From Desulfopila aestuarii DSM 18488 (GTDB taxonomy: Bacteria; Desulfobacterota; Desulfobulbia; Desulfobulbales; Desulfocapsaceae), in the NCBI GenBank assembly GCA_945863875.1, contig CAMBBS010000007.1:25259-89258 (forward strand): a stretch of 64,000 nucleotides of DNA. Direction: 5' to 3'. This document shows positions 11,299-57,145 of the stretch, one piece after another. The notes below the pieces were generated by a model. It saw nothing but the letters and a program-made list of their open reading frames with translations. It did no database searches and had not been told where the DNA came from. The position numbers and the translations under genes are program-made. How positions within the stretch are numbered: position 1 is the first letter of the stretch; every line of letters begins with the position of its first letter.

Positions 11299-11659
11299 GT
11301 ACACGGTGCCATAGATCATAGAACAATCGACACAGAAAAGTACAACAGCGAGGAGCCTTTGTTATCAATGGCTCCCGCTGTTTGTCGTTTCGTGGCTGGT
11401 ATTTTAAATCGCAGTTACACCAGTCTCCGCCCAGCTTGTGCACTTTTCCCAGCCTCCATTTGTCGTTTCTCCTCTTCATTTTCTCTTCACCGGCTCCAGC
11501 GGTGGCACTTTTCGTTTTGCTTTCACTCGGTGTCTCTGCTGAAAAGAACCGGTCTCTCCGGTGCGGCATGATATTTATTTGTTATTTCGCAACAACAGTT
11601 TTACTATGTCGAGGTACAATTTTATTAGCACTGAATCTGCTTTGTAAAACAACTGAGCT

Positions 11660-21999: not shown

Positions 22000-22262
22000 T
22001 GAAAGTTACCTTGAAAATTCTTCACTTTCGCGAGTAAAAACCACCCCGGCAACGGTAATGAAAGGTTTTGTCCCAGCACCACCGGCTTAACCCCTTCAAC
22101 CTGTTTAACCACTTGCCGCAGAGCCTGGAACTGGTGGAGCATTCCAGAGTGCCTCTCTCTTCGTTCTTAACGCAGCCCGTCAGCCCTGCGGCCCTGGCTG
22201 TGCCTGGTCAACAGAGGAACTTGCTTGCACAAGCTCCGCCCTTCAGGGCGGGGTAGTTGACG
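22000..22262 (-). ncRNA. candidate omega-RNA-like structured region directly 5' of the iscB relic
   Basis: The minus strand has consecutive strong hairpins: CCGCCC-tgaa-GGGCGG (22226-22241), GCTTG-tg-CAAGC, CAGCC-N10-GGCTG, CTGGAA-N11-TTCCAG and CCGGTGGTG...CCGGGGTGG. There is no credible ORF. In IscB loci the guide RNA scaffold occupies exactly this position. Confidence 0.35.
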
Positions 22263-33664: not shown

Positions 33665-36214
33665 TCATTTACCGGAGGCTGCTATCCTTTTAAAGACCGC
33701 CCCATCAATTTTTTTCCAAAGCTTAACATGGACGGAGTAATCCTGCATGATCGGCTCGTGTAATCTGACCCCGACAATGACGCCAGTAAGCTCCGGCAGC
33801 TCCTCATCTTTTATGTAAATACTTGTCATGAGATGCCTGCCGAGAAGGAGTCTGGCATTGTCGGATTTGGAAATTCTTATGGTAAAGGCCAATCCTTGCC
33901 TGGAAATATCGAAAAGTTCCCCACTAAAAGTCCGTTTGTTCTTGCTGCCGAAGGGATCCAGCAAAACATTTCTGGTGTGGAGAAGAACCGAATGACGAGG
34001 AAATTCGCGGCGATCATCTCCTGACATTTTTATTAATTCGGCCACCTGGGCATATTTTTCACAATATTTGCGCAAGGTGCTTTCGATGAGGGGAGATTCC
34101 TCTACAATTTTCGCAAATACCTCTTTGGCAAGGATTTGTACCTGGATATCGCTGAGGGCTCTCAGGGTAACGGTCCAAACCGAATGGGAAAAAAATTGTT
34201 CTCCCCCCATGACATCGCTTGGCTGCATCCTTTTCAGAAAAACCTCTTTCCCACAGACGAAACAGCTGAGGCTCACGTATCCGGAGTTTAAAAAATATAA
34301 ATTATTATCCGTCTCGCCGGCCTGTACGATGATATCCCCCTTGTGGTAGTGTTCCAGCCGCAGAGCATAGTAAAGCCGATTGAAGTCTTCGGTGGTCATC
34401 TCCTCATACAGGTCCTTCCAGATTGCGAGATGATGACTGCTGATAGAAGAGCTCTTTTGCTCGGCAACGAACTCGCTCAGTCTGATAACCTGGGAAAAAG
34501 CCATGGAATCAATTTCCAAAAGTCTCTCCTGCAAGGCTTCAGCCAGGGAGAAATCTTTTATTTTTGCAGCTGCCATAGCCTGGTCATACAGCAATTTTCC
34601 CGCCTGCTGCGTCTTGCCGCCGCGAACGAGCGCCTGAATCTCTTCCTCTGCCTTTCTCATCTTGTCGAAGACCAGCTGCTGCTGCACGGGATCATTATCA
34701 AAGGAGACAGGATCTGCAAAATTATCGACCTGCTGCCGTGTGTGTCTTACCATCGGTTCAATAACTTTTAGGGCCTGATCGATATGAAGCAGATGCTGCT
34801 CCGTTTCCAGTTTTCCCGCATAATCACGCTGCATTTTCTTCAGTTGCTCGACACTTTGCCTGCAGGGAAATTTTTTCAACGCCTCGATGAGAGCACGCAG
34901 CACATCAAGGCCAAATTGGCCGGAGAAGTTCGCTTTTCCCCCGGAGAGTTCGAGAAGGGCTGCCAGAACACTTCCGTCCTTATCATCCTCTTCGAGAAGC
35001 AGGCGGATTATATAAATTTTCAGCCGATCATGCGCAAGACCAAGGCCGTCAAGCAAGCGGGATTGCTTCATCTTGCCACCAAATTTCAGGATACAGCTGA
35101 TCATTTCATGCTGCACCCGTTCATCAAAATGGCCTAAATAGCGGGCGACAAGGCCATAATGGCTGTCGATACCAATTTCAGAGATGAGGTAGATGACGTT
35201 TCTGACAACTGCCCATGGCGGATTTTGTTTGAGACATTCCTGCAGGGCGGGAACCGCACCTTTGCCGAATGCCGGGATCAGATCAAGCAAGGTAAGTCTT
35301 TCAACCCTGCTGTTGCTGTGGATGACCCTGTTGAGTAGAGAGATTACTGCCTTATGACCAAGAGCAAGGAGAATGTTGTGCGTGACGTGCTTTTGGTCAT
35401 TTTCCAGCAGATATTCGTTGGTCAGTTTTTCTACGATGGATTTCCGGGCAAGGCTCTGCAGCGTTTTATTCGTCAGGCTCTGTATGGCCCTGCTCTTTTC
35501 CAGGTCCCCTGACTGGATCCGGTGGAGAAGGACAACCACCGATTCGGCCTCAACCCAGCACGAATTATCCAGCAACCACAGCGCAATGTCCTCAAGCCCT
35601 GTATTCAATACGGAAAACCCGGGCAACATTTCAGTTTCAAATTCGAGCCATCGAGAAAGGCCCCGGGCTAAAACGACGAGGAACGCCCCGTTGATACTTG
35701 CGTCGTTTCGGTCGAGGTGAAATTTCACGGCAGACGACAGTAAGGCGAGAGCCCTCTCCCTGACCGGCGCCTCTGCAGCAAGGGCCCCGTCCCCAAGACA
35801 CCGAAAGATATCAATTAATTGTTCACTATCGCCAGGCTCGGCCAAAAGGAAACCATTCAATTCCTCGAAAAATTCATTGTTTTTCAGAACCTGTGTTTTT
35901 CCCTGGGTAAAATCACTGAGCGTATAGGCAAACCGGAGTTCCCGGCGGCCTTTTTCGGAGGCAGCGATGTTTTGTTTGACAGTTTCCAGGATCTCGCTAT
36001 TCTGACCAGCTTTTTTTTCCATTATAAAAAACTCTTCGAAGTTATCTTCAGACTCATAGATTTGTTTACGAAACAGCCGGCCGAAATGCACCAGCCTTTC
36101 CGGCAGAGGCACTGATATGGTAATACAAATATCATAGGTGGTATATAATTGGTATCCCATTATACCTCTATTCGAATTGTCGCAACGACTATTATTGTTG
36201 AATTTTCCAGTCAA
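33665..36214 (-). CDS. large multidomain protein: HEAT/ARM-like repeat region + cyclic-nucleotide-binding domain + C-terminal PilZ domain
   Basis: HEAT-like 'RVERLTLLDLIPAFGKGAVPALQECLKQNPPWAVVRNVIYLISEIG'. cNMP 'YHKGDIIVQAGETDNNLYFLNSGYVSL'. PilZ 'DRREFPRHSV...GELFDISRQGLAF'. The true start may be 36022 (MEKKAGQ...). Confidence 0.7.
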   Translation of the reverse strand: MTGKFNNNSRCDNSNRGIMGYQLYTTYDICITISVPLPERLVHFGRLFRKQIYESEDNFEEFFIMEKKAGQNSEILETVKQNIAASEKGRRELRFAYTLSDFTQGKTQVLKNNEFFEELNGFLLAEPGDSEQLIDIFRCLGDGALAAEAPVRERALALLSSAVKFHLDRNDASINGAFLVVLARGLSRWLEFETEMLPGFSVLNTGLEDIALWLLDNSCWVEAESVVVLLHRIQSGDLEKSRAIQSLTNKTLQSLARKSIVEKLTNEYLLENDQKHVTHNILLALGHKAVISLLNRVIHSNSRVERLTLLDLIPAFGKGAVPALQECLKQNPPWAVVRNVIYLISEIGIDSHYGLVARYLGHFDERVQHEMISCILKFGGKMKQSRLLDGLGLAHDRLKIYIIRLLLEEDDKDGSVLAALLELSGGKANFSGQFGLDVLRALIEALKKFPCRQSVEQLKKMQRDYAGKLETEQHLLHIDQALKVIEPMVRHTRQQVDNFADPVSFDNDPVQQQLVFDKMRKAEEEIQALVRGGKTQQAGKLLYDQAMAAAKIKDFSLAEALQERLLEIDSMAFSQVIRLSEFVAEQKSSSISSHHLAIWKDLYEEMTTEDFNRLYYALRLEHYHKGDIIVQAGETDNNLYFLNSGYVSLSCFVCGKEVFLKRMQPSDVMGGEQFFSHSVWTVTLRALSDIQVQILAKEVFAKIVEESPLIESTLRKYCEKYAQVAELIKMSGDDRREFPRHSVLLHTRNVLLDPFGSKNKRTFSGELFDISRQGLAFTIRISKSDNARLLLGRHLMTSIYIKDEELPELTGVIVGVRLHEPIMQDYSVHVKLWKKIDGAVFKRIAASGK

Positions 36215-36369: not shown

Positions 36370-37608
36370 ATGCTAAGCCGAAGAATAGTTATCACCGGGA
36401 TCGGACTCGCCGCACCAAATGGTGCAACACTCGAAGAATACAGAGAAAAACTGATCAACGGCATCAGCGAAATCCAGGAAATCGAGCTGAGATACTTCGG
36501 CAAGGCGCCCGCCGGTATATGTTCCTTTCCGGAGACCCTCTATCGCAAAAAGAAAGAAAACAAAAAAGGCACCCGCGCCGGTTGTCTTGGCGTCTACTGT
36601 GCCAATGAGGCACTGAGAAACGGCAATCTGGATATCACCATGTATGATGCGGCCAAGATCGGCGTGTACATCGGCCTCACCGAACATGGTACGGTGGAGA
36701 CGGAAAATGAAGTCTATAATATCAGCAAATACGGCCATAATACCGACTACTGGACCCACCACCACAATCCGCGCACCGTTTTAAATAATCCCGCCGGCGA
36801 AATTACCATGAATTTAGGTATTACCGGTCCACATTACGTTATTGGTGCCGCCTGCGCCGCAGGCAATGCGTCACTCATCCAGGCGGTGCAGATGATGCGC
36901 CTCGGCGAGGTCGATATGGCTCTTGCCGGCGGGATATCCGAATCTGTCGGATCCTTTGGCATTTTCGCCAGTTTTAAGGCACAGGGCGCACTCGCCGAAG
37001 CGGATGACCCGAAACTGGCCTCGCGGCCATTCGACATGGGCAGAAACGGCATAGTCATCTCCGAAGGCGCCTGTGTCTACACCCTTGAATATCTCGAGAA
37101 AGCCCAGGAAAGAGGGGCGCACATCTACGGTGAGATCGTCGGCTATGCCATGAATTCTGATGCCCGGGATTTTGTTCTCCCCTATGGCAAAAGGCAGGCG
37201 CAATGCATGCGTCTGGCCCTGGAAAGAGCCGGACTGCAGCCGGAAGAGATCCATCTCATCAATACCCATGCGACGGGCACAAAACAGGGCGATATTGAAG
37301 AATGCAAGGCCATACGAGAAGTATTCCCCGACAGCCCGACCACCTACCTCAACAACACGAAGAGTATCATTGGCCATGCCATGGGTGCCGCCGGCGTATT
37401 GGAACTTGCCGGCAACCTGCCTTCCTTTGATGACAACATTGTCCACCCAACCATTAACATAGAAAACCTCGATCCCGAATGTCACCTCAACAACCTGGTG
37501 ATCAACAAGGCGGTTCAGGCAAAATCTATCGATACGATACTGAATAATTCCTTTGGAATGGTCGGCATCAACTCCACCGTAATAGTCAAAAAATATACTG
37601 CCGACTAA
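36370..37608 (+). CDS. beta-ketoacyl-ACP synthase (KAS I/II, FabF/FabB-like)
   Basis: 'RIVITGIGLAAPNG', active-site Cys 'IGAACAAGNASL', and His/His in 'INTHATGT' and 'IIGHAMGAAG'. Confidence 0.9.
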   Translation: MLSRRIVITGIGLAAPNGATLEEYREKLINGISEIQEIELRYFGKAPAGICSFPETLYRKKKENKKGTRAGCLGVYCANEALRNGNLDITMYDAAKIGVYIGLTEHGTVETENEVYNISKYGHNTDYWTHHHNPRTVLNNPAGEITMNLGITGPHYVIGAACAAGNASLIQAVQMMRLGEVDMALAGGISESVGSFGIFASFKAQGALAEADDPKLASRPFDMGRNGIVISEGACVYTLEYLEKAQERGAHIYGEIVGYAMNSDARDFVLPYGKRQAQCMRLALERAGLQPEEIHLINTHATGTKQGDIEECKAIREVFPDSPTTYLNNTKSIIGHAMGAAGVLELAGNLPSFDDNIVHPTINIENLDPECHLNNLVINKAVQAKSIDTILNNSFGMVGINSTVIVKKYTAD

Positions 37609-37692
37609 TTTTTTGATCGTTTGGTGAAAATAAATATAAAAAAGAACGCACAGGTGTGTTATAGGAAGAGTTTTGCCATTAATAGAATACAT

Positions 37693-37714
37693 ACTCTCTG
37701 AAATTTCAGAGAGT
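37693..37714. promoter_or_regulatory. 22-bp perfect palindrome ACTCTCTGAAATTTCAGAGAGT in the 153-nt KAS-ACP spacer
   Basis: The sequence is its own reverse complement. It lies 48 nt upstream of the ACP start. It is either an operator or an intra-operon RNA hairpin (11-bp stem with no loop as DNA, or about 9 bp plus a 4-nt loop as RNA). Confidence 0.6.
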
Positions 37715-37761
37715 GTTCATATTTCAAACATTTTCACCCTACGTCGAAGCCGGAGAATTTC

Positions 37762-38013
37762 ATGACAAGTGAAGAAATAAAAGATCTCATACTGGAAATT
37801 ATTGAAGATATTGATGACGAGGCAGACTTCACAAGTCTCGATGCCGATCAGCCGTTGCGGGACCAGTTAGATCTCGACTCCATGGATTTTCTTGATATCG
37901 TCATGGAACTGAGAAAACGGCATAAACTGCAGATTCCCGAGGAAGATTATCCTCACCTCGCCACACTTAACAGCTGCGCAACCTACCTCGAACCGCTATT
38001 AAAAGACGCCTGA
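37762..38013 (+). CDS. acyl carrier protein (dedicated, non-housekeeping type)
   Basis: 83 aa. 'DQLDLDSMDFLDIVMEL' carries the DSM phosphopantetheine site. Confidence 0.85.
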   Translation: MTSEEIKDLILEIIEDIDDEADFTSLDADQPLRDQLDLDSMDFLDIVMELRKRHKLQIPEEDYPHLATLNSCATYLEPLLKDA

Positions 38014-38017
38014 TGTT

Positions 38018-39409
38018 GTGAAAGTTCCCTTTCTGGTTATTGGAGGCGGCCTTTCCGGTCTGGCTGCCGCCATTCGAGTAGCACGGTTCAACCCCAGTGT
38101 CCTCCTTTTAGAAAAACACTCCCGACTTGGTGGTCTCAATTCTTATTTTTACCGGAATAAAACTCTCTACGAAACCGGCCTGCATGCCATAACCAACTAT
38201 GCCGGGCCAAGAGATAAAAAAGCGCCCTTAAACCGGCTGCTGCGGCAACTCAAACTGCAGAGGAATGATTTCACCTTCTGTGAACAATATCACAGTGAAG
38301 TTGTTTTCATGGGCTGCACTTCCCTGAGGTTCTCCAACGATTTCAACCTGTTTCAAAGTGAAATCAGCGGCAAGTTCCCACAAACGGGCGACAAGCTTCA
38401 GAAATTACTGGTCTTTCTTGGTAATTACGATCCCTTCGTCCCCATGCCGTTCACCTCGGCAAAAAAGTTTCTGCTGCAGATCCTGGGCGATAAGCTCCTC
38501 GCGGACATGATTCTCTGTCCGTTGATGTACTATGGTTCCAGTCAGGAAAATGACATGGATCTGTCCCAGTTCGCCATCATGTTTCGAGCCATTTATCAAG
38601 AGGGGATGTTTCGCCCGCTGGGAACCATCAAGGATGTTCTCGATCTGCTCGTTGCCCATCTGCAGACGCTGGGAGGGGAAACAAGAACGAGCTGCGGGGT
38701 AGAAAAGATTGTCCATCACCAGGGCACGGCTATCGGCGTACAGCTCTCTTCCGGGGAAGAGATCGAGTGTGACTATCTCCTCTCAACCATTGGCCGGGAT
38801 GAGACGATGCGCCTTCTTGACAAGACGGCCGCCACGCCGATGACCGGTTATGGCCGTCTCGGTTTTGTCGAGACGATCTATCAGGTGCCTGAGATAGAGG
38901 CAACGCATCTCGCTTGTGACAAAACAATTATTTTTTATAATGACGGTGAGCGGTTCCTCTACAAAAACCCCGAGGGTTTGGTCGATTTTGCCAGCGGGGT
39001 GATCTGCTTTCCGGGAAATTTCCAGGGGCTGGAGCGCAAGGATTTACGGGAAATTCGCTCAACCCATCTGGCAAATTACGCGCTCTGGAAAGCACTCTCG
39101 GCAAATGCAGAACAATACACGGCAGAAAAAGAGCGCACTTCACGCCGCTCCGGCCGATGTCTGGAGAATATAATTGGCGATTTCACGACAAATATTGTAT
39201 ATAAAAATTCCTTTACTCCTCTAACTATTGAGCGCTACACATCAAAAATAGGCGGGGCCATTTACGGTAACCCGACCAAGACAAAAGACGGAACTATCGG
39301 ATTCAACAATCTTTTCCTTGCCGGTACCGATCAGGGATTTCTTGGCATTATCGGCTCGATGCTCAGCGGGGTATCGATCGTCAATCAGCATATCCTGCCC
39401 AGGTTATAA
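38018..39409 (+). CDS. FAD-dependent oxidoreductase, phytoene desaturase (CrtI/CrtN)-like, copy 1
   Basis: 'FLVIGGGLSGLAAAIRVARF...LLLEKHSRLGGL' is a dinucleotide fold. The C-terminal 'LFLAGTDQGFLGIIGSMLSG' is typical of amine-oxidase/CrtI-fold proteins. Confidence 0.75.
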   Translation: MKVPFLVIGGGLSGLAAAIRVARFNPSVLLLEKHSRLGGLNSYFYRNKTLYETGLHAITNYAGPRDKKAPLNRLLRQLKLQRNDFTFCEQYHSEVVFMGCTSLRFSNDFNLFQSEISGKFPQTGDKLQKLLVFLGNYDPFVPMPFTSAKKFLLQILGDKLLADMILCPLMYYGSSQENDMDLSQFAIMFRAIYQEGMFRPLGTIKDVLDLLVAHLQTLGGETRTSCGVEKIVHHQGTAIGVQLSSGEEIECDYLLSTIGRDETMRLLDKTAATPMTGYGRLGFVETIYQVPEIEATHLACDKTIIFYNDGERFLYKNPEGLVDFASGVICFPGNFQGLERKDLREIRSTHLANYALWKALSANAEQYTAEKERTSRRSGRCLENIIGDFTTNIVYKNSFTPLTIERYTSKIGGAIYGNPTKTKDGTIGFNNLFLAGTDQGFLGIIGSMLSGVSIVNQHILPRL

Positions 39410-39449
39410 GTTAACTTTTAATCGACCCTCTTTCACCACGTTGTTATTT

Positions 39450-40853
39450 ATGCCTGTATCATTTTCCCAAGTGGATAATCAATACGATGTCATCGTCATA
39501 GGCTCCGGGCTCGGTGGACTGACGACAGCCAACCGCCTGGCCTACTGCGGACATAAGGTTTTGCTTGTCGAGCATCACCATAGATTGGGCGGCCTGTCCA
39601 CCTGGTTTAAACGCCGTGGTCATATTTTCGATATTTCCCTGCATGGTTTCCCCTATGGCATGGTCAAAACCTGCAAGAAATACTGGAATAAGGCGATCAT
39701 GCAATCCATTGTCCAACTGCCGAATATTGTTTTTGACAATCCGCAGTTTACCCTGCGCACCACCTTTGACAAAACTGATTTTACCGAACTCCTCCGGTCT
39801 CATTTCAAAGTTCCCGAAGAGAGAATAAACAGCTTCTTTGCCACCGTGGCCGGCATGAATTTTTATGACGACCAGTCAATGACCACCAGGGAACTGTTCG
39901 AGCGTTTTTTCCCCGGCAGAAGTGATGTGCACAGATTACTCATGGAGCCGATCACCTACGCCAACGGATCGACCTTGGACGATCCGGCTATCACCTACGG
40001 CATAGTCTTCTCCAACTTCATGAACAAAGGCGTATTTACCTTTGAGGGCGGCACCGACAAACTCATCGGAATGATGACCGATGAACTGGAAAAAAACGGT
40101 GTGACCATCTGCACCAAGGCTAAGGTTGACAAAATCATCACCGAAAAAGGCAGGGTGAGAGGCATTTCTGTTCATGGCACAACAATTTGCGCCAAAGCGG
40201 TGGTTTCCAACAGCGGTATAACGAATACCATTCAAAATCTCACCGACCGTGAGGTGTACTCCGATGCGTTTCTCGAAAAAGCCGATAAGATCCGGGTAAA
40301 CACCTCGAGCTGCCAGGTATATCTCGGCATACGGCAGGGCGACAGAATCGACGACGTCGGGGATCTTCTCTTCACCTCCAAATCGCCGGAATTTGATTCA
40401 GAGGAACTCCTCGATATGAATACCAAATCGAAGACTTTCTCCCTATACTATCCAAAGACCAGACCGGGTGCCGACCAGTATACCGTCGTCGCCTCGATGA
40501 ATAGCCGCTTTGAAGACTGGGCGAACCTTGACGAAGAAACGTACCAGAGGGAAAAGCAGTCCCTGGTCACCAGAACGATTGCCGATTTAGACAAGTACCT
40601 GCCCGGTGTAAAGGGAAAAATTGACTGGGCGGAAGCAGCAACACCACGGACATTCAACAGCTATACCCTGCACACCCGGGGTACCTCCTTTGGCACCAAG
40701 TTTGAAGGATTGGACATATCCCGATCAATATTCAAAGAGGTAGCCGGGCTGTTCCATGTCGGCTCGGTCGGAATTATTATGTCCGGCTGGCTTGGCGCCA
40801 TTAACTACGGTGTTATCGTCGCAAACGATGTCGACGGTTTTCTCAGGGCATAA
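39450..40853 (+). CDS. FAD-dependent oxidoreductase, phytoene desaturase (CrtI/CrtN)-like, copy 2
   Basis: '[38 protein letters not shown]' and C-terminal '[21 protein letters not shown]'. Start moved to the ATG at 39450. Confidence 0.75.
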
Positions 40854-40861
40854 GGAGCGAA

Positions 40862-41602
40862 ATGAGTGAATTTGCGGGTCAGACCGTGCTTGTCAGCGGG
40901 GCAACAAGAGGCATCGGCCGAGCAATCGCCGGGAAATTTCTTCAAGCAGGGGCAGAGGTCATCGGCATCTACGCCGGAAATACCGATGCCGCCGCATCGT
41001 TTGCCGAAGAATTCAAAGAGTATTCCTCGCAACTGTCACTTTTGCGATGTGATATTACCAAAGAGGCCGAGGTGGGCGGCCTGTTCGCAATGATCGAGGA
41101 AAAATTCCAGCGCCTTGATGTCCTGGTGAATAACGCCGGCATCCGCAAAGATGCTCTCCTCGCCTTGATGCAGAGCGAGCAATGGCAGCAGGTGATTGAC
41201 ACCAATCTCACCGGAACTTTCTATATGGCCAAGCAGGCGGTGCTGCTTATGCTGCAGCACAAATACGGCCGAATAATCAATATTACCTCGCCAGTCGCCT
41301 CCCTCGGCTTTCCCGGCCAGGCCAACTACGCCGCCTCCAAGGCCGGACAGATCGCTCTGACCAAGACTCTGGCGAAGGAAGTTGCCAAGAAAAAAATTAC
41401 CGTTAATTGCGTATCTCCCGGATTCATCGCCACCGACTTTATCAACGACCTAGGTAAAGAACAACTGACGGCATATAAAAAATTGGTGCCGATGAACAGG
41501 TTTGGCACCGCTGAAGAGGTTGCCGACGCCGTCCTTTTTCTGGCAGGTCACCGGGCGGCATATATAACCGGTACCGTCCTAGACGTCAGTGGCGGACTGT
41601 AA
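40862..41602 (+). CDS. 3-oxoacyl-ACP reductase (SDR, FabG-like)
   Basis: 'VLVSGATRGIGRAIA', 'NNAGI', 'ANYAASKAG' (YxxxK) and 'ITVNCVSPGFIATD'. Confidence 0.88.
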   Translation: MSEFAGQTVLVSGATRGIGRAIAGKFLQAGAEVIGIYAGNTDAAASFAEEFKEYSSQLSLLRCDITKEAEVGGLFAMIEEKFQRLDVLVNNAGIRKDALLALMQSEQWQQVIDTNLTGTFYMAKQAVLLMLQHKYGRIINITSPVASLGFPGQANYAASKAGQIALTKTLAKEVAKKKITVNCVSPGFIATDFINDLGKEQLTAYKKLVPMNRFGTAEEVADAVLFLAGHRAAYITGTVLDVSGGL

Positions 41603-41604
41603 CC

Positions 41605-42048
41605 ATGGACTCTCTTGCGGAAATCACCTCCCTTATCCCCCACCGGGCCCCCTTTTTATGGGTTGATACAATCATTTCCTTTGCCGACGACACAATCGTC
41701 ACCGAGAAAACGATCCCGACCGACCTCGATATCTTCACCGGCCACTATCCGGGCAACCCGATTATGCCCGGAGTACTCCTCTGCGAAGCTATCTTCCAGA
41801 GTGGCGCCCTGCTCATGGGGAAGATGGGTGCGGTGAAAAACGCAGATGTGGCGGCGCTTCCTGTTTTAACCCGCATCAACAGTGCCAAATTCAAAAGAAG
41901 CGTACGCCCAGGGGATACCGTCCGCATACAGGTGAAAATGTCGGAAACCATATCCTCGGTCAGCTTTTTCAAGGGCAAGATGACGGTCGGAGGAAAAACC
42001 GCCGTCCAGGTAGATTTTGCCTGTACAATGGGTTTTTCCATCGCCTAG
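41605..42048 (+). CDS. 3-hydroxyacyl-ACP dehydratase (FabZ/FabA-like hotdog)
   Basis: 'LIPHRAPFLWVDTI' and 'FTGHYPGNPIMPGVLLCEAIFQ'. Confidence 0.85.
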   Translation: MDSLAEITSLIPHRAPFLWVDTIISFADDTIVTEKTIPTDLDIFTGHYPGNPIMPGVLLCEAIFQSGALLMGKMGAVKNADVAALPVLTRINSAKFKRSVRPGDTVRIQVKMSETISSVSFFKGKMTVGGKTAVQVDFACTMGFSIA

Positions 42049-42258: not shown

Positions 42259-42960
42259 GTGCAGCTATCAATTTCCGACATGATTCTACATGCTGGCCCC
42301 ATGGGCCAGCTGGTGATGTTCACCCTGCTTATTTTCTCGATCGTATCCTGGACCATAGTGGTGATGAAGGCCCGTTTATACAAAAAAGTCCGTCTTGACT
42401 CGGAAGACTTTATTGAAACCTTCTGGGGTTCGTCTAACCTGAACGAAGCATTCACTGCCGCTGCCGAATATGCCTATTCTCCCCAGGCGGCGGTTTTTGT
42501 CGCCGGGTTTAGAGAGCTCGAAAAAATCAATAAAATCCGCAACAAAAGGGATGTAAACAAAGGACCGGACACCCTCGATATGCAGCTGGCCACCATGGAC
42601 AATCTTAAACGGGCCGTCAGGAAAGCGGAATCACAGAAAATCAATCAACTCGGCAGCAGTCTTCCCTTTTTAGCCACGACCGGAAGCGCAACACCGTTTA
42701 TCGGTCTTTTCGGTACCGTCTGGGGTATCATGGCTTCTTTTCATGATATCGGCCAAAGAGGCTCGGCATCTCTCGCGGTGGTCGCCCCGGGCATATCAGA
42801 GGCATTGGTCGCCACCGCCGCAGGGCTTGCCGTCGCTATTCCGGCGGTTATTTTTTACAACTACTATTCCAATAAACTTGATGAAATCGACGCAGAAATA
42901 GCCAACTTTTCCACCGACTTTCTCAATCTCGTGGAACGTGACCTGCTAAGTAGAGTATAG
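42259..42960 (+). CDS. tolQ: Tol-Pal system protein TolQ (MotA/TolQ/ExbB proton channel)
   Basis: 'LPFLATTGSATPFIGLFGTVWGIM' and 'VAPGISEALVATAAGLAVAIPAVIFYNY'. Confidence 0.9.
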   Translation: MQLSISDMILHAGPMGQLVMFTLLIFSIVSWTIVVMKARLYKKVRLDSEDFIETFWGSSNLNEAFTAAAEYAYSPQAAVFVAGFRELEKINKIRNKRDVNKGPDTLDMQLATMDNLKRAVRKAESQKINQLGSSLPFLATTGSATPFIGLFGTVWGIMASFHDIGQRGSASLAVVAPGISEALVATAAGLAVAIPAVIFYNYYSNKLDEIDAEIANFSTDFLNLVERDLLSRV

Positions 42961-42964
42961 AACA

Positions 42965-43381
42965 ATGGGCCCAACAAGAAGTAACGGCAGAAAAAGACTT
43001 GTTTCTGATATCAACGTGACACCGCTCGTCGATGTCATGTTGGTACTGTTGATAATATTCATGGTAACCGCGCCGATGATGACGCAGGGGATCGATGTGG
43101 ATCTCCCTGAAACGACGTCAAAATCCCTGCGTCAGGAAGAAAAACCCGTTTCCGTTACTATCAACAAGGAAGGGGGTCTCAGTATCAACAATATTCAACT
43201 CAGCCGTGCTCTGATGATCCAGGAGCTGGAAAAAAACTATACTGCCAATAAAGACCAGCCTATCTATATCAGGGCCGACAAGAACGTTACCTATGGACAC
43301 GTGATGGCGGTTATGGAAGATATAAAATCGGTCGGGTTTAATAAGGTTGGTATGATTACCGTGCCACCTGAGAAAGAGTAA
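42965..43381 (+). CDS. tolR: TolR (ExbD/TolR family)
   Basis: 'SDINVTPLVDVMLVLLIIFMVTAP' and 'IYIRADKNVTYGHVMAVMEDIK'. Confidence 0.9.
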   Translation: MGPTRSNGRKRLVSDINVTPLVDVMLVLLIIFMVTAPMMTQGIDVDLPETTSKSLRQEEKPVSVTINKEGGLSINNIQLSRALMIQELEKNYTANKDQPIYIRADKNVTYGHVMAVMEDIKSVGFNKVGMITVPPEKE

Positions 43382-43385
43382 CAGC

Positions 43386-44411
43386 GTGTTTCGAGTTACT
43401 GCCATGACGTCCAATGAATGGAAACTGCCACTGAATGTTGCCATCGGCATTCACATACTGGTCCTGTTAGGATCTTTATATTTACCGGCGATATTTAAGA
43501 CCAAGCCGAAATTTGCCGACATTTACACGGTAAGTATTATCAATATTGCCGAACCTGCGGCAGGTACGCCGCCTGCCGCAGGCCCGAAAACGAGTCCGCC
43601 TCCGGTAAGCACCCCGCAAAAGAAGGCCGAAAAACCTGCTCCGGTCATTAAACCCCAGGAAAAGGTGGTAAAAGCCCCCGTGCCGATTGCCAAACCCCCG
43701 GAGAAGGAAGCTCCTGCTCCCGTTCCGGTAGCTGAACCCGAGGAAAAGATAGATCCGACACCGGCTCCACAAAAGGCTATTTCTCTGAAACCGATAAAAA
43801 AGAAAATAATCCAAAAGATCAAGCCGGCAGAAGATATTAAACCACCGGAAAATATCAAGCCCAGGGAGAATCCGGTTCGCAAACAAGAGATGGAACGAAA
43901 CAGGAGAGAAATACTTGCCAAGGCAATCAGAGAAGAAGAGCTCCTGGCGGCAAAGGCCCAATTGGCTCAAGAGGCTCTTGAGGCTGAACGTAACCTGCTC
44001 CAACCGTCACAGTCGGCCAGTAATGTAAATGAGGTTGCGGCAAGGTCGTCTGCAAGTTCGTCTGCAAGTTCGAACAATCAGACGTCAACCGGAGCCGCTG
44101 CCAGCGGCGGCAGCACAAATCTGCTTGAAAGCCAATATCTGGCATCGGTCTTCAATAGATTGCAGCAGTTCTGGGCACCGCCCGAATACTTGCAGCAAGA
44201 TCCAGATTTAACTGCCGTGGTGGTCATTACTATCAACCTTGACGGAAACATTGCCAACATGGCTTTTGAAAGCAAATCCGGCGACAGGGTGTTTGACCAG
44301 TTTGTCAACAGCACCATAGAAGCGGCCAACCCTATGCCGCCAATTCCACCCGCCCTGAGAAAGCAACGTTTTGAAGTAGGGTTGCGTTTCAGGCCGGGCA
44401 GTATACAATAA
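43386..44411 (+). CDS. tolA: TolA-like protein (TM anchor, Pro/Lys-rich spacer, coiled coil, TonB_C/TolA C-domain)
   Basis: TM 'LPLNVAIGIHILVLLGSLYL'. Long 'KPAPVIKPQEKVVKAPVPIAKPPEKEAPAP' spacer. C-terminal 'FWAPPE...AVVVITINLDGNI...FESKSGDRVFDQ'. Alternative start at the ATG at 43404. Confidence 0.8.
   Translation: MFRVTAMTSNEWKLPLNVAIGIHILVLLGSLYLPAIFKTKPKFADIYTVSIINIAEPAAGTPPAAGPKTSPPPVSTPQKKAEKPAPVIKPQEKVVKAPVPIAKPPEKEAPAPVPVAEPEEKIDPTPAPQKAISLKPIKKKIIQKIKPAEDIKPPENIKPRENPVRKQEMERNRREILAKAIREEELLAAKAQLAQEALEAERNLLQPSQSASNVNEVAARSSASSSASSNNQTSTGAAASGGSTNLLESQYLASVFNRLQQFWAPPEYLQQDPDLTAVVVITINLDGNIANMAFESKSGDRVFDQFVNSTIEAANPMPPIPPALRKQRFEVGLRFRPGSIQ
44047..44072 (+). repeat. 2.2 copies of a 12-nt tandem repeat (CGTCTGCAAGTT) inside tolA
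   Basis: Copies at 44047-44058 and 44059-44070 are identical, and the next 2 nt continue the unit. It encodes SSASSSASS. Confidence 0.85.
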
Positions 44412-44448
44412 CACAATATAACCCATAGTTGCAAAAGGTCTACCATCC

Positions 44449-45732
44449 ATGAAAACAACTACTTTCAGGAATTTATTCTTTTTTATCCTTCTGTTTATTG
44501 TTGCAGAGAAGGCAATCGGCGCCGAACGCGTCTACCTGGATATTACCGCTTCAGAGACCAGAAAAATCAACATTGCGGTTCCGGTGTTTCAAAACAAAAA
44601 TCTGTCCGGTCAACCTAATGTGATCGCCAGAGAACTGGCGGACACTCTGAGCAACGCGCTCAAGTTTCATGGCATTATTTCCATAATTTCCAGCCCCGGG
44701 TATGGTGGCAATGAACCTGCAGACTGGAAAAAGTCAGGTGCCGATTATGCCGTGTTAGGGCAATATGAGATGAACTCGGACGTCATTAAACTTGAAATGA
44801 GACTGCTGGATGTCGCTGGGGACGAGATCATTATGGGCAAAAGCTTCTCTGGTTCGACGGCCCAAAAAGAACAAATACTCTTTAAATTTTGCGACAACGT
44901 TATCGAAACCCTGACGGGCAAACCTGGCATTGCAACCTCCCGGATCGTCTTTGTCAACGGAGAAAAGAATACCAAAGAGGTTTATCTGACAGACATCCTC
45001 GGGACAAGATTCAGACAAATAACTCGTCACAAACATCTCACCGTCAGCCCAAGGTTTGTTCCCGGAGGAAATTTTCTGACCTACACCTCCTATCACAGCG
45101 GTAATCAAAATTTGTATATTACCGATCTGCGGCAGGACAAAATCACCCGGGTGATTTCTCGACGCAAGGGTTTAAATCTTGCGCCGGCCTGGGCAGCCGA
45201 TGGTCAATCCATGGTCCTCACCCTTTCCACAAACGGCAACCCGGATCTCTATCTTTTGAACGCGGCTGGCGAAATAATTGAACAACTTACCGACCGGGCG
45301 GGTATCAATGTCTCCCCGACCTGGTCTCCCGATGGCAGCCATCTTGTTTTTGTCTCCGACCGTAGCGGTAAACCGCAACTCTATCTGATGGATATGCGAA
45401 CAAGAAAGGTGCAAAGACTGACCTTTGAAGGATCTGAGAACGCAGAACCCAGCTGGTCGCCGACTGAAGACCTTATTGTCTATTCCAGCCTGCGAGACGG
45501 CGTGTACCAGTTATTTACCCTCAATCCATACAAAAACATCGCCCCGGTTCAGGTGACCGACGACCTCAGTTATCACGAAGCACCCTCCTGGTCACCAGAC
45601 GGCAACCAGATCATATTTGCAAAACGTGATGGCAAAAAGAACCAGATATACGGTATAATGAAAAACGGTTCCTTTCAACGAAGGCTTTTCACTCTTCCCG
45701 GCAGCCAGAATTATCCCCAATGGTCAAGGTAA
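44449..45732 (+). CDS. tolB: TolB (periplasmic beta-propeller)
   Basis: Signal peptide, then repeated 'P.WSPDG' blades (SPTWSPDGSHLVFVSDRSG, EPSWSPTEDLIVYSS, APSWSPDGNQIIFA). Confidence 0.9.
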   Translation: MKTTTFRNLFFFILLFIVAEKAIGAERVYLDITASETRKINIAVPVFQNKNLSGQPNVIARELADTLSNALKFHGIISIISSPGYGGNEPADWKKSGADYAVLGQYEMNSDVIKLEMRLLDVAGDEIIMGKSFSGSTAQKEQILFKFCDNVIETLTGKPGIATSRIVFVNGEKNTKEVYLTDILGTRFRQITRHKHLTVSPRFVPGGNFLTYTSYHSGNQNLYITDLRQDKITRVISRRKGLNLAPAWAADGQSMVLTLSTNGNPDLYLLNAAGEIIEQLTDRAGINVSPTWSPDGSHLVFVSDRSGKPQLYLMDMRTRKVQRLTFEGSENAEPSWSPTEDLIVYSSLRDGVYQLFTLNPYKNIAPVQVTDDLSYHEAPSWSPDGNQIIFAKRDGKKNQIYGIMKNGSFQRRLFTLPGSQNYPQWSR

Positions 45733-45769
45733 GGTATTCAGAGAATAATTTTAGCAAAATAACTCTATC

Positions 45770-46855
45770 ATGAAAAAAACAGTAATAAATTTTCTTCTTC
45801 TTGTCGCGGCAACGCCTTTTCTTGTGCAATGTGCTTCGCAGGCTGATGTCGATCAATTACGATATCAACTGCGTGTCGTTAATAAAAAAATCGAGGATAT
45901 GCGCTCGACCACAGTCGGCCAACTGCAGAAACGTCAAGCTGTGGCCAGCGGGCAGGTAGATCAGGTCGAACAGGATATTCTTCAATTGAAAAATCAGCTT
46001 GAGGAAACCAATCACCTTAATCAACGGCTCAAGGAGCAAAATAAAGAACTTGAGGCGACCATTACCAACGTAGTCCAGACGGAAGCAACCAAACGTGAAG
46101 AAGCGTTAAAGCAATTCGAAGAGTCTCAACGTGAAAAAGAGCTCAGACTGACGGAGAACCTGAACGAAAAATTGCGATTGCAGGAAGAAAGTGTCAAGGC
46201 GATTCAGGAAGCGCGTATTAAGGAGGCAGAACGCCGGGCCAAAGAGGCGTCAATTGCCGCAGAACTGGCAAAGACCCGTGCAAAATCAGCCAATACTGAT
46301 TTGCAGTCGGCAGGATCTCCCGGCCACATCCGTCTGGAGCAGAAAAAAGTCAAATTGACGCCGGCAGTGCAGGCTGCGTTGGCTGCACCCTCCCAGCCGA
46401 CGGCCACGCCGGCTGAGCAAAATGTCCAGCCGGCGGTACAGGAAAAGCCAGCTGCGGTTGTTCCCGTTGCAGATCCGATCGCCTCCGAGCCGTCTCCAGA
46501 CAATTTCAGCAAAGCACAGAAGCTTTATGAAAGCGAGAAGTATAAGGAGGCTCAACAATTATTCGAACAGGTCGCCGGCAATACATCCGAGAGCAAAAGC
46601 GTAGACGCTCGGTTTATGATGGGCGAGTGCCTCTTTGAACAGAAGGAATACGATAAGGCGATCATGCAGTATCAGAATATTATTTCCCAGCATGCCGAAC
46701 ACGCCCGATCTCCGGCTGCAATGCTGAAGCAGGGGATGGCCTTTGAAAAACTCTCCGATAAGGACACCGCAAAGGTTATCTACAAAAAATTACTGAAAAA
46801 GCACGGTTCATCTCCCGAGGCGGCGGCAGCCCAGGAAAGAATCAGCAAGATCTAG
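45770..46855 (+). CDS. cpoB: CpoB/YbgF-like protein with an extended coiled coil and C-terminal TPR domain
   Basis: Signal peptide 'MKKTVINFLLLVAATPFLVQCAS'. About 170 aa of heptad-like E/K/Q/L sequence, then an Ala/Pro linker, then TPR 'AQKLYESEKYKEAQQLFEQV...AMLKQGMAFEKLSDKDTAKVIYKKLLKKH'. Confidence 0.75.
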   Translation: MKKTVINFLLLVAATPFLVQCASQADVDQLRYQLRVVNKKIEDMRSTTVGQLQKRQAVASGQVDQVEQDILQLKNQLEETNHLNQRLKEQNKELEATITNVVQTEATKREEALKQFEESQREKELRLTENLNEKLRLQEESVKAIQEARIKEAERRAKEASIAAELAKTRAKSANTDLQSAGSPGHIRLEQKKVKLTPAVQAALAAPSQPTATPAEQNVQPAVQEKPAAVVPVADPIASEPSPDNFSKAQKLYESEKYKEAQQLFEQVAGNTSESKSVDARFMMGECLFEQKEYDKAIMQYQNIISQHAEHARSPAAMLKQGMAFEKLSDKDTAKVIYKKLLKKHGSSPEAAAAQERISKI

Positions 46856-47684: not shown

Positions 47685-49283
47685 ATGACTGCCAAAAAAA
47701 TCCTCTGTTTCACCTTCTGTCTTGTTCTTTTTTTTGCTCCTGACGGTTTCACGCAGACAGCCGGGCAGAGCATAGCAACATCCTTTACTCTTCTTTTCTC
47801 AGGCAACGTTTGGGGGGAGTACGAGCCCTGCGGGTGAAGTTCAAATCAGCTGGGCGGACTGTCCGGCAAGGCGCATTTATTAGCAGCATTGAGGGCGGAA
47901 ACAGCACAGCCGCTGCTTGTTGTCGATGCCGGCAATCTTCTTTTTCAAACGGCTCTCAGGGGTGCAGGGGAAGACGACAAAACCACCGCCCTCATCATCG
48001 CCCACGGCATCGTCAGGGCGTATCAGGGGATGGCCTATGATGCTGTGGCCATCAGCGCAAATGACCTTTCCGCCGGGGCTGCATTTTTCCAGCAATCCGC
48101 TGACCAATCTTTTCCCTGGGTGGCCGCCAATGTCAGTGACCAAAACGGCAGGGCGGTTGTTCCCGCACATAGTATTAAAAAAATCGCCGGCCTGACTATC
48201 GGTATTATCGGCCTGACGGGAGGGACCGGCAACGATGTTGCCGGTTTTATCATCGATGACTGGCGCACGGCCCTCAAGACAGAAATCACCTTACTTGAAA
48301 AGCGCTGCGACATATTACTGGTTCTCTCTACCCTGACGCCGGCTGAAAATAATGAAATACAGCAAAATTACAAACAGCTCGACATCGTTGTTTCCGCTGA
48401 CAACAAAGGGGCAAATATTCAACCGCAGGTGTTTCAGAACAGCCTCCTTGTGCAAAGCGGAAGTCGAGGAAAATATATAGGCAGGCTTGATATCACGAGG
48501 CATGGCCCAGGCAACTGGTACACTGCTCCCTCTCCATCACCGGCAGAAAGACCAGCCAGACTTACGGCCATCGACCGGCAACTGGGGCAACTTGAGAAAG
48601 AACAGCGCGAAACAAACAGGGATTTCAGCCAGAAAATCGCCCGGCTGCAATCGTATCGGCAAAGACTTTCCGAACAAATAGGCCAATACAAGCCAGAAGA
48701 CAGTGCCAGTACCATAGCCCCGTCCAAAAGGTTCCAATATGCTACTCTGGCGGTTAAACCGACATCGTCCCGTGCGGACACCCAGACCATCGTCCAGGAC
48801 ATCAAAAAGAGCATTGCCGCCTTGAACAGATACCGGCATGCCGGGATTCAAGCAGACGACCCGGCTCTTCTCTACGCGCTGCAGAAAAATGAGATAGTTG
48901 GTGGCAGCGCCTGCCTGCCTTGCCATGCAAAACAAACTGAATTTTGGAAAACGACCAAGCACGCCGACGCTTTTTCCACCCTTGCCGAGCAGGGCCAGAC
49001 TTTTAATCTCCAGTGCCTCCCTTGCCATGTCACTGCCGGGAGAGTCATGGCGTCCTCTGTCGACTCAGAACTGCTGTTTCTCCTCTCGCTCGATACCGAT
49101 CGTCAAACAATCGGTTGTGAGGTCTGTCACGGTCCCGGGAACAACCATCTTCTTTCCCCTGAAACAACAGCACCGCTGCGATTACCTCCTGAAGAGATCT
49201 GTCGGCAATGCCACACCCCAGATCGAGACGGCACTTTCAGCTACCCCGGAAAACTCGCGGCAATTGCCTGCCCGGCCAGTTGA
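47685..49283 (+). CDS. candidate selenoprotein: signal peptide + degenerate 5'-nucleotidase/metallophosphatase-like domain carrying C-G-[TGA] + C-terminal tetrahaem cytochrome c
   Basis: ORFs 47649..47837 and 47889..49283 share a frame, with 17 stop-free codons between them. The single in-frame TGA is at 47835-47837. There are four CxxCH sites (CLPCH, CLPCH, CEVCHGPG, CRQCH). Signal peptide 'MTAKKILCFTFCLVLFFAPDGFTQ'. Confidence 0.55.
47849..47867 (+). promoter_or_regulatory. candidate bacterial SECIS hairpin
   Basis: GCUGGGCG-GAC-UGUCCGGC starts 11 nt after the UGA: 8 bp including 3 G-U pairs, with an apical loop beginning with G about 20 nt from the UGA. An alternative tighter fold is CGGA-cug-UCCG. 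Confidence 0.35.
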
Positions 49284-54301: not shown

Positions 54302-54892
54302 ATGCCGATGAGCTCCCCGACCGCTCACATTGCCACGTTGTATCGGTTTTGTGCCCAAAGTATGCAATACCCCGATAGTGAATGGTTTATCGATAACTAT
54401 CTGACATGCCTCTACAGCCTCCTCGACGCCCTTGGCGGCAGTGAAGAAAAAGCCACTTTGCAGGCTGAATTCAGCGCGAGCAAGGATATTCTCGAGGATC
54501 TCCAGGTTGAATACACTCGACTCTTCATAAACGGCGTGCCCCATGTTGCCGCGCCGCCATATGGCTCGGTCTATCTGGAAAAAACCCTGCGAGGGAAATA
54601 TTCCGATACGGTCTTGACGTACTACCGCTCTCTCGGCTACAACCTTACCGAAAATGCCGACCTTCCCGACAGCTTAATACATCAGCTTGAGTTTCTTTCT
54701 TTTCTCGCCGAAGATAACAACCAAGCACGTGAAGAGGAATTTCTCGCTCGTTTTTTTCTGCCGTGGTTTTCAATTTTTGCATCAAAAGTTAAAGAGGAGG
54801 CGCAGCATCCTTTTTATCGAACTATCGTCAGTTTTATTGATTTTTTCACAAAGGAGGACATGGAATATGGCGTTCAACATCACGAGGCGTAA
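54302..54892 (+). CDS. TorD/DmsD-family redox enzyme maturation chaperone
   Basis: 'LYRFCAQSMQYPDSEWF', 'EYTRLFINGVPHVAAPPYGSVYLE' and 'DSLIHQLEFLSFLAE'. Overlaps the catalytic subunit start by 26 nt. Confidence 0.75.
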   Translation: MPMSSPTAHIATLYRFCAQSMQYPDSEWFIDNYLTCLYSLLDALGGSEEKATLQAEFSASKDILEDLQVEYTRLFINGVPHVAAPPYGSVYLEKTLRGKYSDTVLTYYRSLGYNLTENADLPDSLIHQLEFLSFLAEDNNQAREEEFLARFFLPWFSIFASKVKEEAQHPFYRTIVSFIDFFTKEDMEYGVQHHEA

Positions 54893-57110: not shown

Positions 57111-57145
57111 ATTCGGCTTTAAAGGTATTATTTCAGGAGAATACA

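Follow-up and report, generated by a model that had tools for sequence, protein, structure and literature searches.

Gene content of the module

The window analysed here is a 64,000-nt (64-kb) stretch of the genome of Desulfopila aestuarii DSM 18488 (Desulfocapsaceae), and its subject is a module of six genes on the + strand at 36370–42048. In order, these encode a β-ketoacyl-acyl carrier protein (ACP) synthase (KAS), an ACP, two flavoproteins of a flavin adenine dinucleotide (FAD)-binding fold designated FAD1 and FAD2, a FabG-like reductase, and a FabZ-like dehydratase. The module is probably a source of unsaturated precursors for long polyunsaturated hydrocarbons that is distinct from the Pfa-type polyunsaturated fatty acid (PUFA) synthases. 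The window's cluster comprises exactly these six genes, all co-directional and separated by gaps of 153, 4, 40, 8, and 2 nt; open reading frames (ORFs), domains, motifs, and spacing agree with the initial annotation, which was made from the sequence and described six tightly spaced genes.

The KAS gene (36370–37608; 412 aa; PF00109 and PF02801) encodes a FabF-like enzyme of the KAS I/II type in which the Cys162/His300/His336 triad and Lys331 are intact. The ACP gene (37762–38013; 83 aa; PF00550, PP-binding) places the phosphopantetheine serine, Ser40, in the motif DLDSM. Both features—the Cys-His-His triad and a dedicated 83-aa ACP—had been read correctly in the initial annotation. The flavoprotein genes follow at 38018–39409 (FAD1; 463 aa; Amino_oxidase and NAD_binding_8) and 39450–40853 (FAD2; 467 aa; Amino_oxidase), and both products are of the CrtI/CrtISO fold. 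The start of FAD2 at 39450 agrees with the lengths of its homologues; starting at 39318, as the longest ORF does, would make it overlap FAD1. The FabG-like protein (40862–41602; 246 aa; adh_short_C2 and KR domains), a short-chain dehydrogenase/reductase (SDR) of the 3-oxoacyl-ACP reductase type, retains the NNAG and Y156xxxK160 motifs, and the FabZ-like 3-hydroxyacyl-ACP dehydratase (41605–42048; 147 aa; PF07977), a hot-dog fold protein, retains His47 and Glu61. As had been remarked of the cluster from the outset, neither an enoyl reductase nor an acyltransferase is detectable by tblastn in it or elsewhere in the 64 kb.

Distinction from known fatty acid synthases

KAS, ACP, and the FabG-like protein do not score at housekeeping level against the NCBIfam equivalog models. 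KAS reaches 314 bits for fabF (TIGR03150; cut-off 494), the ACP 26–35 bits for AcpP models with cut-offs of 65–146 bits, and the FabG-like protein 285 bits for TIGR01830, just under the cut-off of 298. The FabZ-like protein passes one model of two, with 117 bits for NF000582 (cut-off 113) but 116 bits for TIGR01750 (cut-off 155). Neither fabH nor fabD lies within the cluster, and the ACP and FabG genes are split by the two flavoprotein genes. A housekeeping fatty acid synthase (FAS) of type II, i.e., a fab operon, was rejected on these grounds, in keeping with the initial annotation. The comparisons support the prediction that the module is dedicated, non-housekeeping, and ACP-dependent.

Two specialised systems that the initial annotation had also set aside were likewise rejected. 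An aryl-polyene cluster is contradicted by the single KAS with its full triad and by the match of the FabZ-like protein to ApeP/ApeI at E ~3e-4, below cut-offs; the flanks of the cluster in the window are Tol-Pal and a cyclic nucleotide monophosphate (cNMP)-binding protein. A Pfa-type PUFA synthase is contradicted by the small, single-function proteins and by a KAS score of 88 bits for omega_3_PfaA, the cut-off of which is 1010.

Two flavoproteins of the CrtI fold

FAD1 and FAD2 each possess an N-terminal GxGxxG motif and had been described initially as two paralogous CrtI-like enzymes. Their common fold family is borne out; as paralogues, however, they are only distant, with 22% identity (E = 4e-17). 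Both lie far below the NCBIfam cut-offs for crtI_fam (238 bits), CrtD (550 bits), and carot_isom (587 bits), with FAD2 reaching 87, 110, and 110 bits, respectively, and FAD1, the more divergent of the pair, 48, 49, and 71 bits. The carotenoid-isomerase model (carot_isom) is the best for both, albeit weakly. By sequence, the closest solved structures are CrtD-like 4rep and CrtI 4dgk in both cases, and the FAD2 profile matches 4rep with E = 4e-14. An AlphaFold2 model of FAD1 (pLDDT 76, pTM 0.78) has 4rep (TM 0.68) and 4dgk (E = 9e-20) as its best folds, and predicts for this protein the three-domain FAD fold of the amine-oxidase/CrtI family.

FAD2 is the most conserved enzyme of the module, at 78%–93% identity across Desulfocapsaceae genera and 58%–63% across phyla; FAD1 ranges from 63% to 93% across the same genera. 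FAD2 emerges as a discrete subfamily when 1.84 billion cluster representatives are searched exhaustively with HMMER: full-length relatives extend down to 37% identity, followed by a drop to ~28%, the level of generic CrtI-like proteins. The distant FAD2-like protein P0245 (locus L089) has an unrelated gene context.

CrtI, CrtD, and CRTISO share with FAD1 and FAD2 the FAD-binding amine-oxidase fold, and their family is known for desaturation, which uses O2 or quinone, as well as for isomerisation, which uses reduced FAD. FAD1 and FAD2, however, fall below every family cut-off, FAD2 stands apart as a subfamily, and the neighbours are FAS and ole genes. A carotenoid locus was therefore rejected, from the sub-cut-off CrtI/CrtD/carot_isom scores and from the FAS, ole, and phosphopantetheinyl-transferase neighbours (unlabelled ORFs were not explicitly scanned for PF00494). 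The carotenoid-gene context that had been raised in the initial annotation as a counter-indication is likewise not what the conserved neighbours represent, although crtB/crtM were not scanned for directly.

UfaD, of the Rhodobacter sphaeroides furan fatty acid pathway, can be likened to the pair by description: it belongs to the same broad flavoprotein family and is a phytoene-desaturase-like enzyme that introduces a double bond at an allylic site of a fatty acyl chain (PMC7380195). Its substrate, however, is a phospholipid-bound methylated 18:1 chain, O2 is apparently needed, and its gene forms an operon with UfaO (partner methylase UfaM) and not with ACP, KAS, or FabZ.

Conservation across phyla

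One genome per GTDB species was scanned, and the best 80 loci were taken for analysis. At least 592 species encode FAD2 relatives, and the analysed loci belong to Desulfobulbales (including cable bacteria), Dehalococcoidia/Chloroflexota, Nitrospinota, Nitrospirales, Planctomycetota, and Verrucomicrobiota. Desulfobulbales, Chloroflexota, Nitrospinota, and Nitrospirales all retain the order KAS-ACP-FAD1-FAD2-FabG-FabZ; the planctomycete and verrucomicrobial versions have the same order minus FabG, the gene for which is absent from the cluster. Module order is thus conserved across at least six lineage groups, and the retention of gene order in relatives, which the initial annotation had made a touchstone of its proposal, extends over several phyla. 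The window shares this order with loci L001–L082 at FAD2 identities of 58%–93%, and orthologous FAD1 and FAD2 place it in the same module family; a Desulfotalea metagenome-assembled genome (MAG) has the exact arrangement of the window. FAD1 directly precedes FAD2 in 63 of 81 loci; across the 81, the conserved neighbours are the ACP, KAS, FabG, FabZ, FabI, phosphopantetheinyl-transferase, and Ole genes. In one 'Pseudomonadota' MAG (L027), an Mrr-type restriction endonuclease gene (11077–12042, +) lies between FAD2 and FabG.

KAS is 90%–91% identical to its nearest relatives and ~60% identical across phyla, and the ACP is 95%–98% identical among close relatives. Ratios of non-synonymous to synonymous substitution (dN/dS), computed for the window against two relatives (L017 and L003), are 0.015–0.15 for the module genes, with 0.02–0.04 for KAS and ~0.016 for the ACP; KAS, ACP, and FAD2 are under tighter constraint than TolQ and TolB. 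Because the same order recurs in dozens of genomes and several phyla under strong purifying selection, the cluster is far more than a chance assembly. Judged from this constraint, the module is clearly functional in the lineage of the window. It is also apparently transcribed in nature, with metatranscriptome contigs >99% identical on KAS, FAD2, and FabG, although these are of low depth and DNA carry-over is possible.

The enoyl reductase

Outside Desulfocapsaceae, a FabI-like SDR gene comes next after FabZ in 30 of the 36 loci with enough sequence, and in ~10 loci of Chloroflexota and Planctomycetota an ACPS-type phosphopantetheinyl transferase follows FabI. In Desulfocapsaceae, the next gene is TolQ (21/21 loci), an adjacency seen in no other lineage. 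The lack of an enoyl reductase is peculiar to Desulfocapsaceae rather than general to the module. In most loci of other lineages both flavoproteins are encoded together with a FabI-like enzyme, and therefore they are not substitutes for an enoyl reductase, contrary to the initial annotation, which had placed them in its stead.

The same count bears on a reading in which FAD1 and FAD2 are RetSat-like saturases that serve as the enoyl reductase in place of FabI. The CrtISO/RetSat clade includes double-bond reductases, a close FAD2 relative is named 'all-trans-retinol 13,14-reductase' by JGI, and the window's cluster is itself without an enoyl reductase. Both flavoproteins are retained, however, where the FabI-like gene is present, and a single reduction does not call for two strongly conserved and different paralogues; we regard a saturase role as extremely improbable.

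Tol-Pal was rejected as a part of the module, since its adjacency is confined to Desulfocapsaceae and the module occurs in Chloroflexota too. In many Desulfocapsaceae genomes it separates the module from OleBCD, as if a rearrangement specific to this lineage had broken up an ancestral FAS-FabI-ole supercluster.

Linkage to olefin (ole) genes

An ole gene is found within 10 kb in 39 of 81 loci and in six of eight taxon groups, often contiguous with the module. Five loci of Desulfobulbaceae/Desulfurivibrionaceae (L030, L032, L040, L041, and L043) carry an uninterrupted KAS-ACP-FAD1-FAD2-FabG-FabZ-FabI-OleA-OleB-OleC-OleD series. In the Nitrospirales locus L049, oleA, oleB, oleC, and oleD lie directly upstream of KAS; in Dehalococcoidia, oleA abuts KAS; and in Verrucomicrobia, the order is FAD2-FabZ-FabI-OleA-OleB. 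Many Desulfocapsaceae have OleB-OleC-OleD 7–8 kb off, past Tol-Pal, and an FAD2 branch at 39% identity again shows FabG-FabZ-FabI, with OleABCD 6 kb distant. Two Dehalococcoidia loci (L052 and L067) contain two OleA and two KAS genes per cluster, arranged as OleA-KAS-ACP ... OleA-KAS-FAD1-FAD2-FabG-FabZ-FabI.

The OleA candidate scores 216–223 bits against the PDB set 3row/3s21/4kti/5vxd/6b2r, which we take to be Xanthomonas OleA, versus at most 76 bits against FabH, and it reaches 450 bits for NF006720, above the cut-off. The OleB candidate has a haloalkane-dehalogenase-like fold, the OleC candidate an AMP-binding domain, and relatives of OleD carry the JGI name '2-alkyl-3-oxoalkanoate reductase'. 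A cold-shock-domain gene adjoins OleB-OleC-OleD on the upstream side, and diverges from it, in three Desulfocapsaceae loci (L083:6758–6958, L084:6727–6930, and L085:6886–7086), which is suggestive given the cold-adaptation role proposed for polyene hydrocarbons.

Co-localisation with oleABCD would also suit flavoproteins that act after the Ole enzymes on the finished long-chain olefin, as CrtI does on phytoene, with the FAS genes supplying ordinary chains; CrtI-family substrates are normally C30–C40 hydrocarbons. In every lineage, however, the flavoprotein genes come after ACP and before FabG/FabZ; the module includes a dedicated ACP and, in some lineages, a phosphopantetheinyl transferase too; and selection on it is strong in genomes without nearby ole genes. 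Several Planctomycetota loci also show a 4-nt overlap of FAD2 and FabZ (e.g., L058: FAD2 195–1631, FabZ 1628–2077), and in P0242, a JGI metagenome protein of 625 aa, an FAD2-type amine-oxidase domain (22–377) is fused to a FabA/FabZ domain (490–593). Action on the finished olefin is accordingly very improbable. The physical linkage to oleABCD, the head-to-head olefin pathway, that the module shows in six lineage groups makes a polyunsaturated product much better supported than before.

Earlier descriptions

FAS clusters with phytoene-dehydrogenase-like genes were described in Kuenenia stuttgartiensis, syntenic with Desulfotalea psychrophila, by Rattray in 2009 (PMC2649909); the cluster that the initial annotation mentioned from comparative work on anammox ladderanes and from a psychrophilic sulfate reducer is this one. 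D. psychrophila has two adjacent phytoene-desaturase-like genes (DP2405/DP2406) and contains C31:8 and C31:9 hydrocarbons at 5% of lipids; no ladderanes were found, polyketide synthase (PKS)-type PUFA genes are lacking, and a novel anaerobic PUFA route was proposed (PMC2649909). In Shewanella, C31:9 arises when OleA acts on 16:4n-3 that the Pfa synthase carries on its ACP domains (PMC6463001). The oleC gene has been found in PVC, Nitrospinaceae, and deltaproteobacterial MAGs (PMC10176705).

Like the window's module, the Kuenenia clusters (kuste3603–3608 and kuste3335–3352) and the D. psychrophila loci combine phytoene-desaturase-like flavoproteins with FabF- and FabZ-type genes and an ACP of their own. 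The anammox clusters differ, however: they are described with radical S-adenosylmethionine (SAM) enzymes, SAM methylases, a FabF pair resembling a ketosynthase (KS) and chain-length factor (CLF), and one flavoprotein each (bioRxiv 10.64898/2026.05.19.726425). The window's module has one canonical KAS, and its FAD1 and FAD2 are likened to the Kuenenia flavoproteins by description. An anammox ladderane-type cluster was rejected, as no radical-SAM or methylase gene occurs in or beside the window's cluster and there is one KAS only. Kuenenia kuste3336 and kuste3607 cannot replace CrtI and give no lycopene (Javidpour 2016; PMC4790861), and in a 2026 review the desaturase step is still listed as hypothetical.

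The gene combination has thus been known since 2009, and what is new is the genomic context, most strikingly the ole genes. No link between the module and ole genes appears in the literature searched on ole genes with polyunsaturated hydrocarbons, phytoene, or Desulfotalea, nor does the searched literature give an account of multi-phylum conservation, of in-cluster FabI or phosphopantetheinyl transferase, or of flavoprotein function for the module.

A proposed dissociated route to polyunsaturated chains

We consider it fairly probable that the module is an operon-like, dissociated (type II), ACP-dependent synthase of an unsaturated, most likely polyunsaturated, chain, and as such a functional counterpart of Pfa. 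With the Pfa synthase (pfaABCDE) plus OleABCD of Shewanella and Photobacterium, it shares an O2-independent, ACP-bound line with KS, ketoreductase, dehydratase (DH), and enoyl reductase functions, a dedicated phosphopantetheinyl transferase, genomic linkage to oleABCD, and hosts that make C31 polyenes. Unlike Pfa, however, it consists of separate small proteins with no CLF, acyltransferase, tandem ACPs, or FabA-like DH/isomerase domains, and it includes two CrtI-fold flavoproteins, which Pfa synthases lack.

In the proposed synthase, KAS, FabG, FabZ, and an enoyl reductase would elongate the chain on the dedicated ACP; the enoyl reductase would be the in-cluster enzyme elsewhere and, for the window, one encoded outside the 64 kb. 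FAD1 and FAD2 would act on the FabZ product, trans-2-enoyl-ACP, at defined cycles, such that the double bond survives. The favoured chemistry would be a CrtISO-like, reduced-flavin, redox-neutral isomerisation, with one flavoprotein yielding the cis-3 and the other the cis-2 isomer from trans-2. OleA would then condense two such chains, and OleBCD would complete the C31 polyene hydrocarbon, as measured in D. psychrophila. Since no ole genes adjoin the module in the window's lineage, membrane lipids may be an additional or alternative destination of the product there.

In outline, a Pfa-type route to a methylene-interrupted chain such as 16:4n-3 would need two different isomerisations of the trans-2-enoyl intermediate in the course of elongation, to cis-3 and to cis-2, and Pfa synthases are thought to isomerise via FabA-like domains. 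The module has a FabZ-type dehydratase only, plus two different flavoproteins. Flavin-dependent isomerases are favoured because of this need for two isomerisations, the CRTISO precedent, and the carot_isom best score. Isomerisation by CRTISO takes place with the FAD reduced and leaves the redox state unchanged overall, and CRTI is able to isomerise under anaerobic conditions (PMC3382138). That FAD1 and FAD2 constitute a new class of flavin-dependent enoyl-ACP isomerases within a dissociated, O2-independent PUFA synthase—a third PUFA route that supplies OleA—is put forward tentatively, as a serious possibility short of a probable one.

The main rival retains the same module and product class but makes FAD1 and FAD2 oxidative desaturases of the CrtI/UfaD type, which would remove two hydrogens beside a double bond already present in the ACP-bound chain, with quinone as the electron acceptor, giving a conjugated or further unsaturated chain. 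This was the role proposed by Rattray in 2009 and also, next to isomerisation, in the initial annotation; both flavoproteins are CrtI/CrtD-type in fold and sequence, CRTI can take quinones in place of O2 (PMC3382138), and UfaD sets a precedent for allylic acyl desaturation (PMC7380195). The flavin desaturases of this family, however, act at activated (allylic) positions and extend conjugation, whereas C31:9 in Shewanella derives from methylene-interrupted 16:4n-3 (PMC6463001). The strict-anaerobe hosts, the adjacency of FabZ and FabI, and the one FabZ fusion fit a trans-2-enoyl substrate, and the best family scores are, weakly, those of the isomerase model. We therefore hold oxidative desaturation to be unlikely, while giving it more weight than the other alternatives.

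The logic of the proposed isomerisation resembles that of FabA/FabB, FabM, FabN, and FabX, in which trans-2-enoyl-ACP is converted to the cis-3 isomer and elongated by a dedicated KAS; FabX is also a flavoenzyme. FabA, FabM, FabN, and FabX, however, belong to hot-dog, crotonase, and nitronate-monooxygenase-like flavin mononucleotide (FMN) families rather than to the CrtI fold, and these systems yield monoenes and are not known to be linked to ole genes. The module could by analogy comprise a flavoprotein counterpart of FabA/FabM/FabX plus a dedicated KAS, and make a special monounsaturated membrane fatty acid (e.g., a positional isomer such as 16:1w5) anaerobically, the ole link being secondary. 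Its extreme conservation, above that of TolQ/TolB, in Desulfocapsaceae without nearby ole genes would suit this, and 16:1w5 is prominent in Gemmataceae (PMC7534041). In D. psychrophila, moreover, the 13C signature of one of two C16:1 isomers matches that of the polyene hydrocarbons, suggestive of a separate pathway shared by both (PMC2649909). Two flavoproteins, a dedicated ACP, and a phosphopantetheinyl transferase nevertheless exceed the needs of one isomerisation, recurrent oleABCD contiguity across six lineage groups speaks for the hydrocarbon pathway, and no direct evidence ties 16:1w5 to the module genes; a monoene product is thus improbable.

Several observations weigh against the proposed polyunsaturated product and the isomerase role. 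No product has been demonstrated for the module in any organism, and expression of the Kuenenia homologues in E. coli led to no new lipid (PMC4790861). Pfa-like clusters are present in Gemmata and Geobacter, two further genera that produce C31:9 (PMC3098273), and therefore the C31:9 hydrocarbon alone does not imply the module. The hydrocarbon link rests on other genomes and not on that of the window: no OleA–D, FabI-like, or phosphopantetheinyl-transferase gene was found in the 64 kb with queries from several lineages, nor within 10 kb in the nearest relatives (L003–L006, L017, and L086), and ole genes are in reach in 0/7 Nitrospinota and only 4/17 planctomycete loci. Several planctomycete FAD2 genes stand alone, and P0242 is the sole FAD2-FabZ fusion, a single metagenomic sequence that could be a frameshift artefact. 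The isomerase assignment of FAD1 and FAD2, which we infer by family analogy only, is not discriminated by their NCBIfam scores, which do not tell a desaturase from an isomerase or a saturase; the fold matched by FAD1 is that of CrtI/CrtD in general and makes no such distinction either, and the FAD2 AlphaFold model, built with 27 close homologues, has a pLDDT of 53, too poor for a fold search.

The usual Desulfocapsaceae neighbours of OleBCD (PriA, a LAM-type radical-SAM enzyme, CSD, and an M48 peptidase) were also not found in the window. In the Desulfocapsaceae locus L085, however, OleBCD is unlinked from the module, and because OleBCD can sit elsewhere in a genome of this family, its absence from the window says little.

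Intergenic elements and surroundings of the module

In the spacer between KAS and ACP, the stretch 37636–37716 (+) comprises a block, AAGAAAGCACAGGTATGTTATAGGAAG.GTTTTGCCAT, that is conserved among close relatives of the window, and after it a hairpin, the stem of which (37691–37716) stays paired in these relatives through compensatory changes from CTCTC/GAGAG to CTCCC/GGGAG and was recorded as an 11-bp stem in a terminator-like scan. The block and hairpin may be an internal promoter, a processing site, or an attenuator that sets ACP expression apart from that of KAS. Promoter and terminator scans of the cluster did not rise above shuffled expectation, and no known RNA was found within it by Rfam.

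Downstream, TolQ starts 210 nt past the FabZ-like gene and opens the Tol-Pal operon (TolQ, TolR, TolA, TolB, and a CpoB-like tetratricopeptide repeat protein; 42259–46855, +). Upstream of KAS, the opposite strand encodes a cNMP-binding/HEAT-repeat protein and then Dus. The former (849 aa; 33665–36214, −) is divergent from KAS, with which it shares a 155-nt intergenic region, and its position is kept in the Desulfocapsaceae relatives L001–L006, L015, L017, L086, and L087. Conserved only within this family, it may regulate the module or may simply be a syntenic neighbour.

The genes downstream of the module for a multihaem cytochrome c554-like protein (47889–49283, +) and, further on, for a molybdopterin oxidoreductase with its 4Fe-4S partner subunit (54687–57976, +) serve respiration and are of a kind typical for Desulfobulbales that cycle sulfur or metals. 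Elsewhere in the window, at 22034–22261 (−), lies a full-length HEARO RNA (Rfam RF02033; 113.7 bits versus a gathering score of 83). HEARO is an RNA associated with HNH-endonuclease/IscB-type ORFs, and a 266-aa ORF follows just downstream on the same strand (21199–21999, −).

Significance

Potentially, the module is a specialised ACP-dependent synthase that feeds the Ole pathway by new enzymology. Because it adjoins oleABCD in many genomes, it is now the prime candidate for the pfa-less synthesis of C31:8 and C31:9 in strict anaerobes such as D. psychrophila. It also bears on the role of 'phytoene desaturase-like' genes in unusual FAS clusters, including those long suspected in ladderane synthesis, and, being simpler and widespread, it provides small and complete gene clusters, with 11 genes at most, that lend themselves to heterologous expression. 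The question raised is whether CrtI-fold flavoproteins can work on ACP-bound fatty acyl chains; to our knowledge, no characterised member acts on such a chain.

A small-protein pathway to PUFAs or polyenes, if true, would be easier to engineer than the Pfa megasynthases, and would refine the reading of environmental ole genes as hydrocarbon sources in anoxic waters and sediments. If the flavoproteins are indeed isomerases, descended from ancestral carotenoid isomerases or desaturases, PUFAs would have a third route beside desaturases and Pfa megasynthases, which would account for C31 polyenes in pfa-less Desulfobulbales, PVC bacteria, Nitrospinota, and Chloroflexota.

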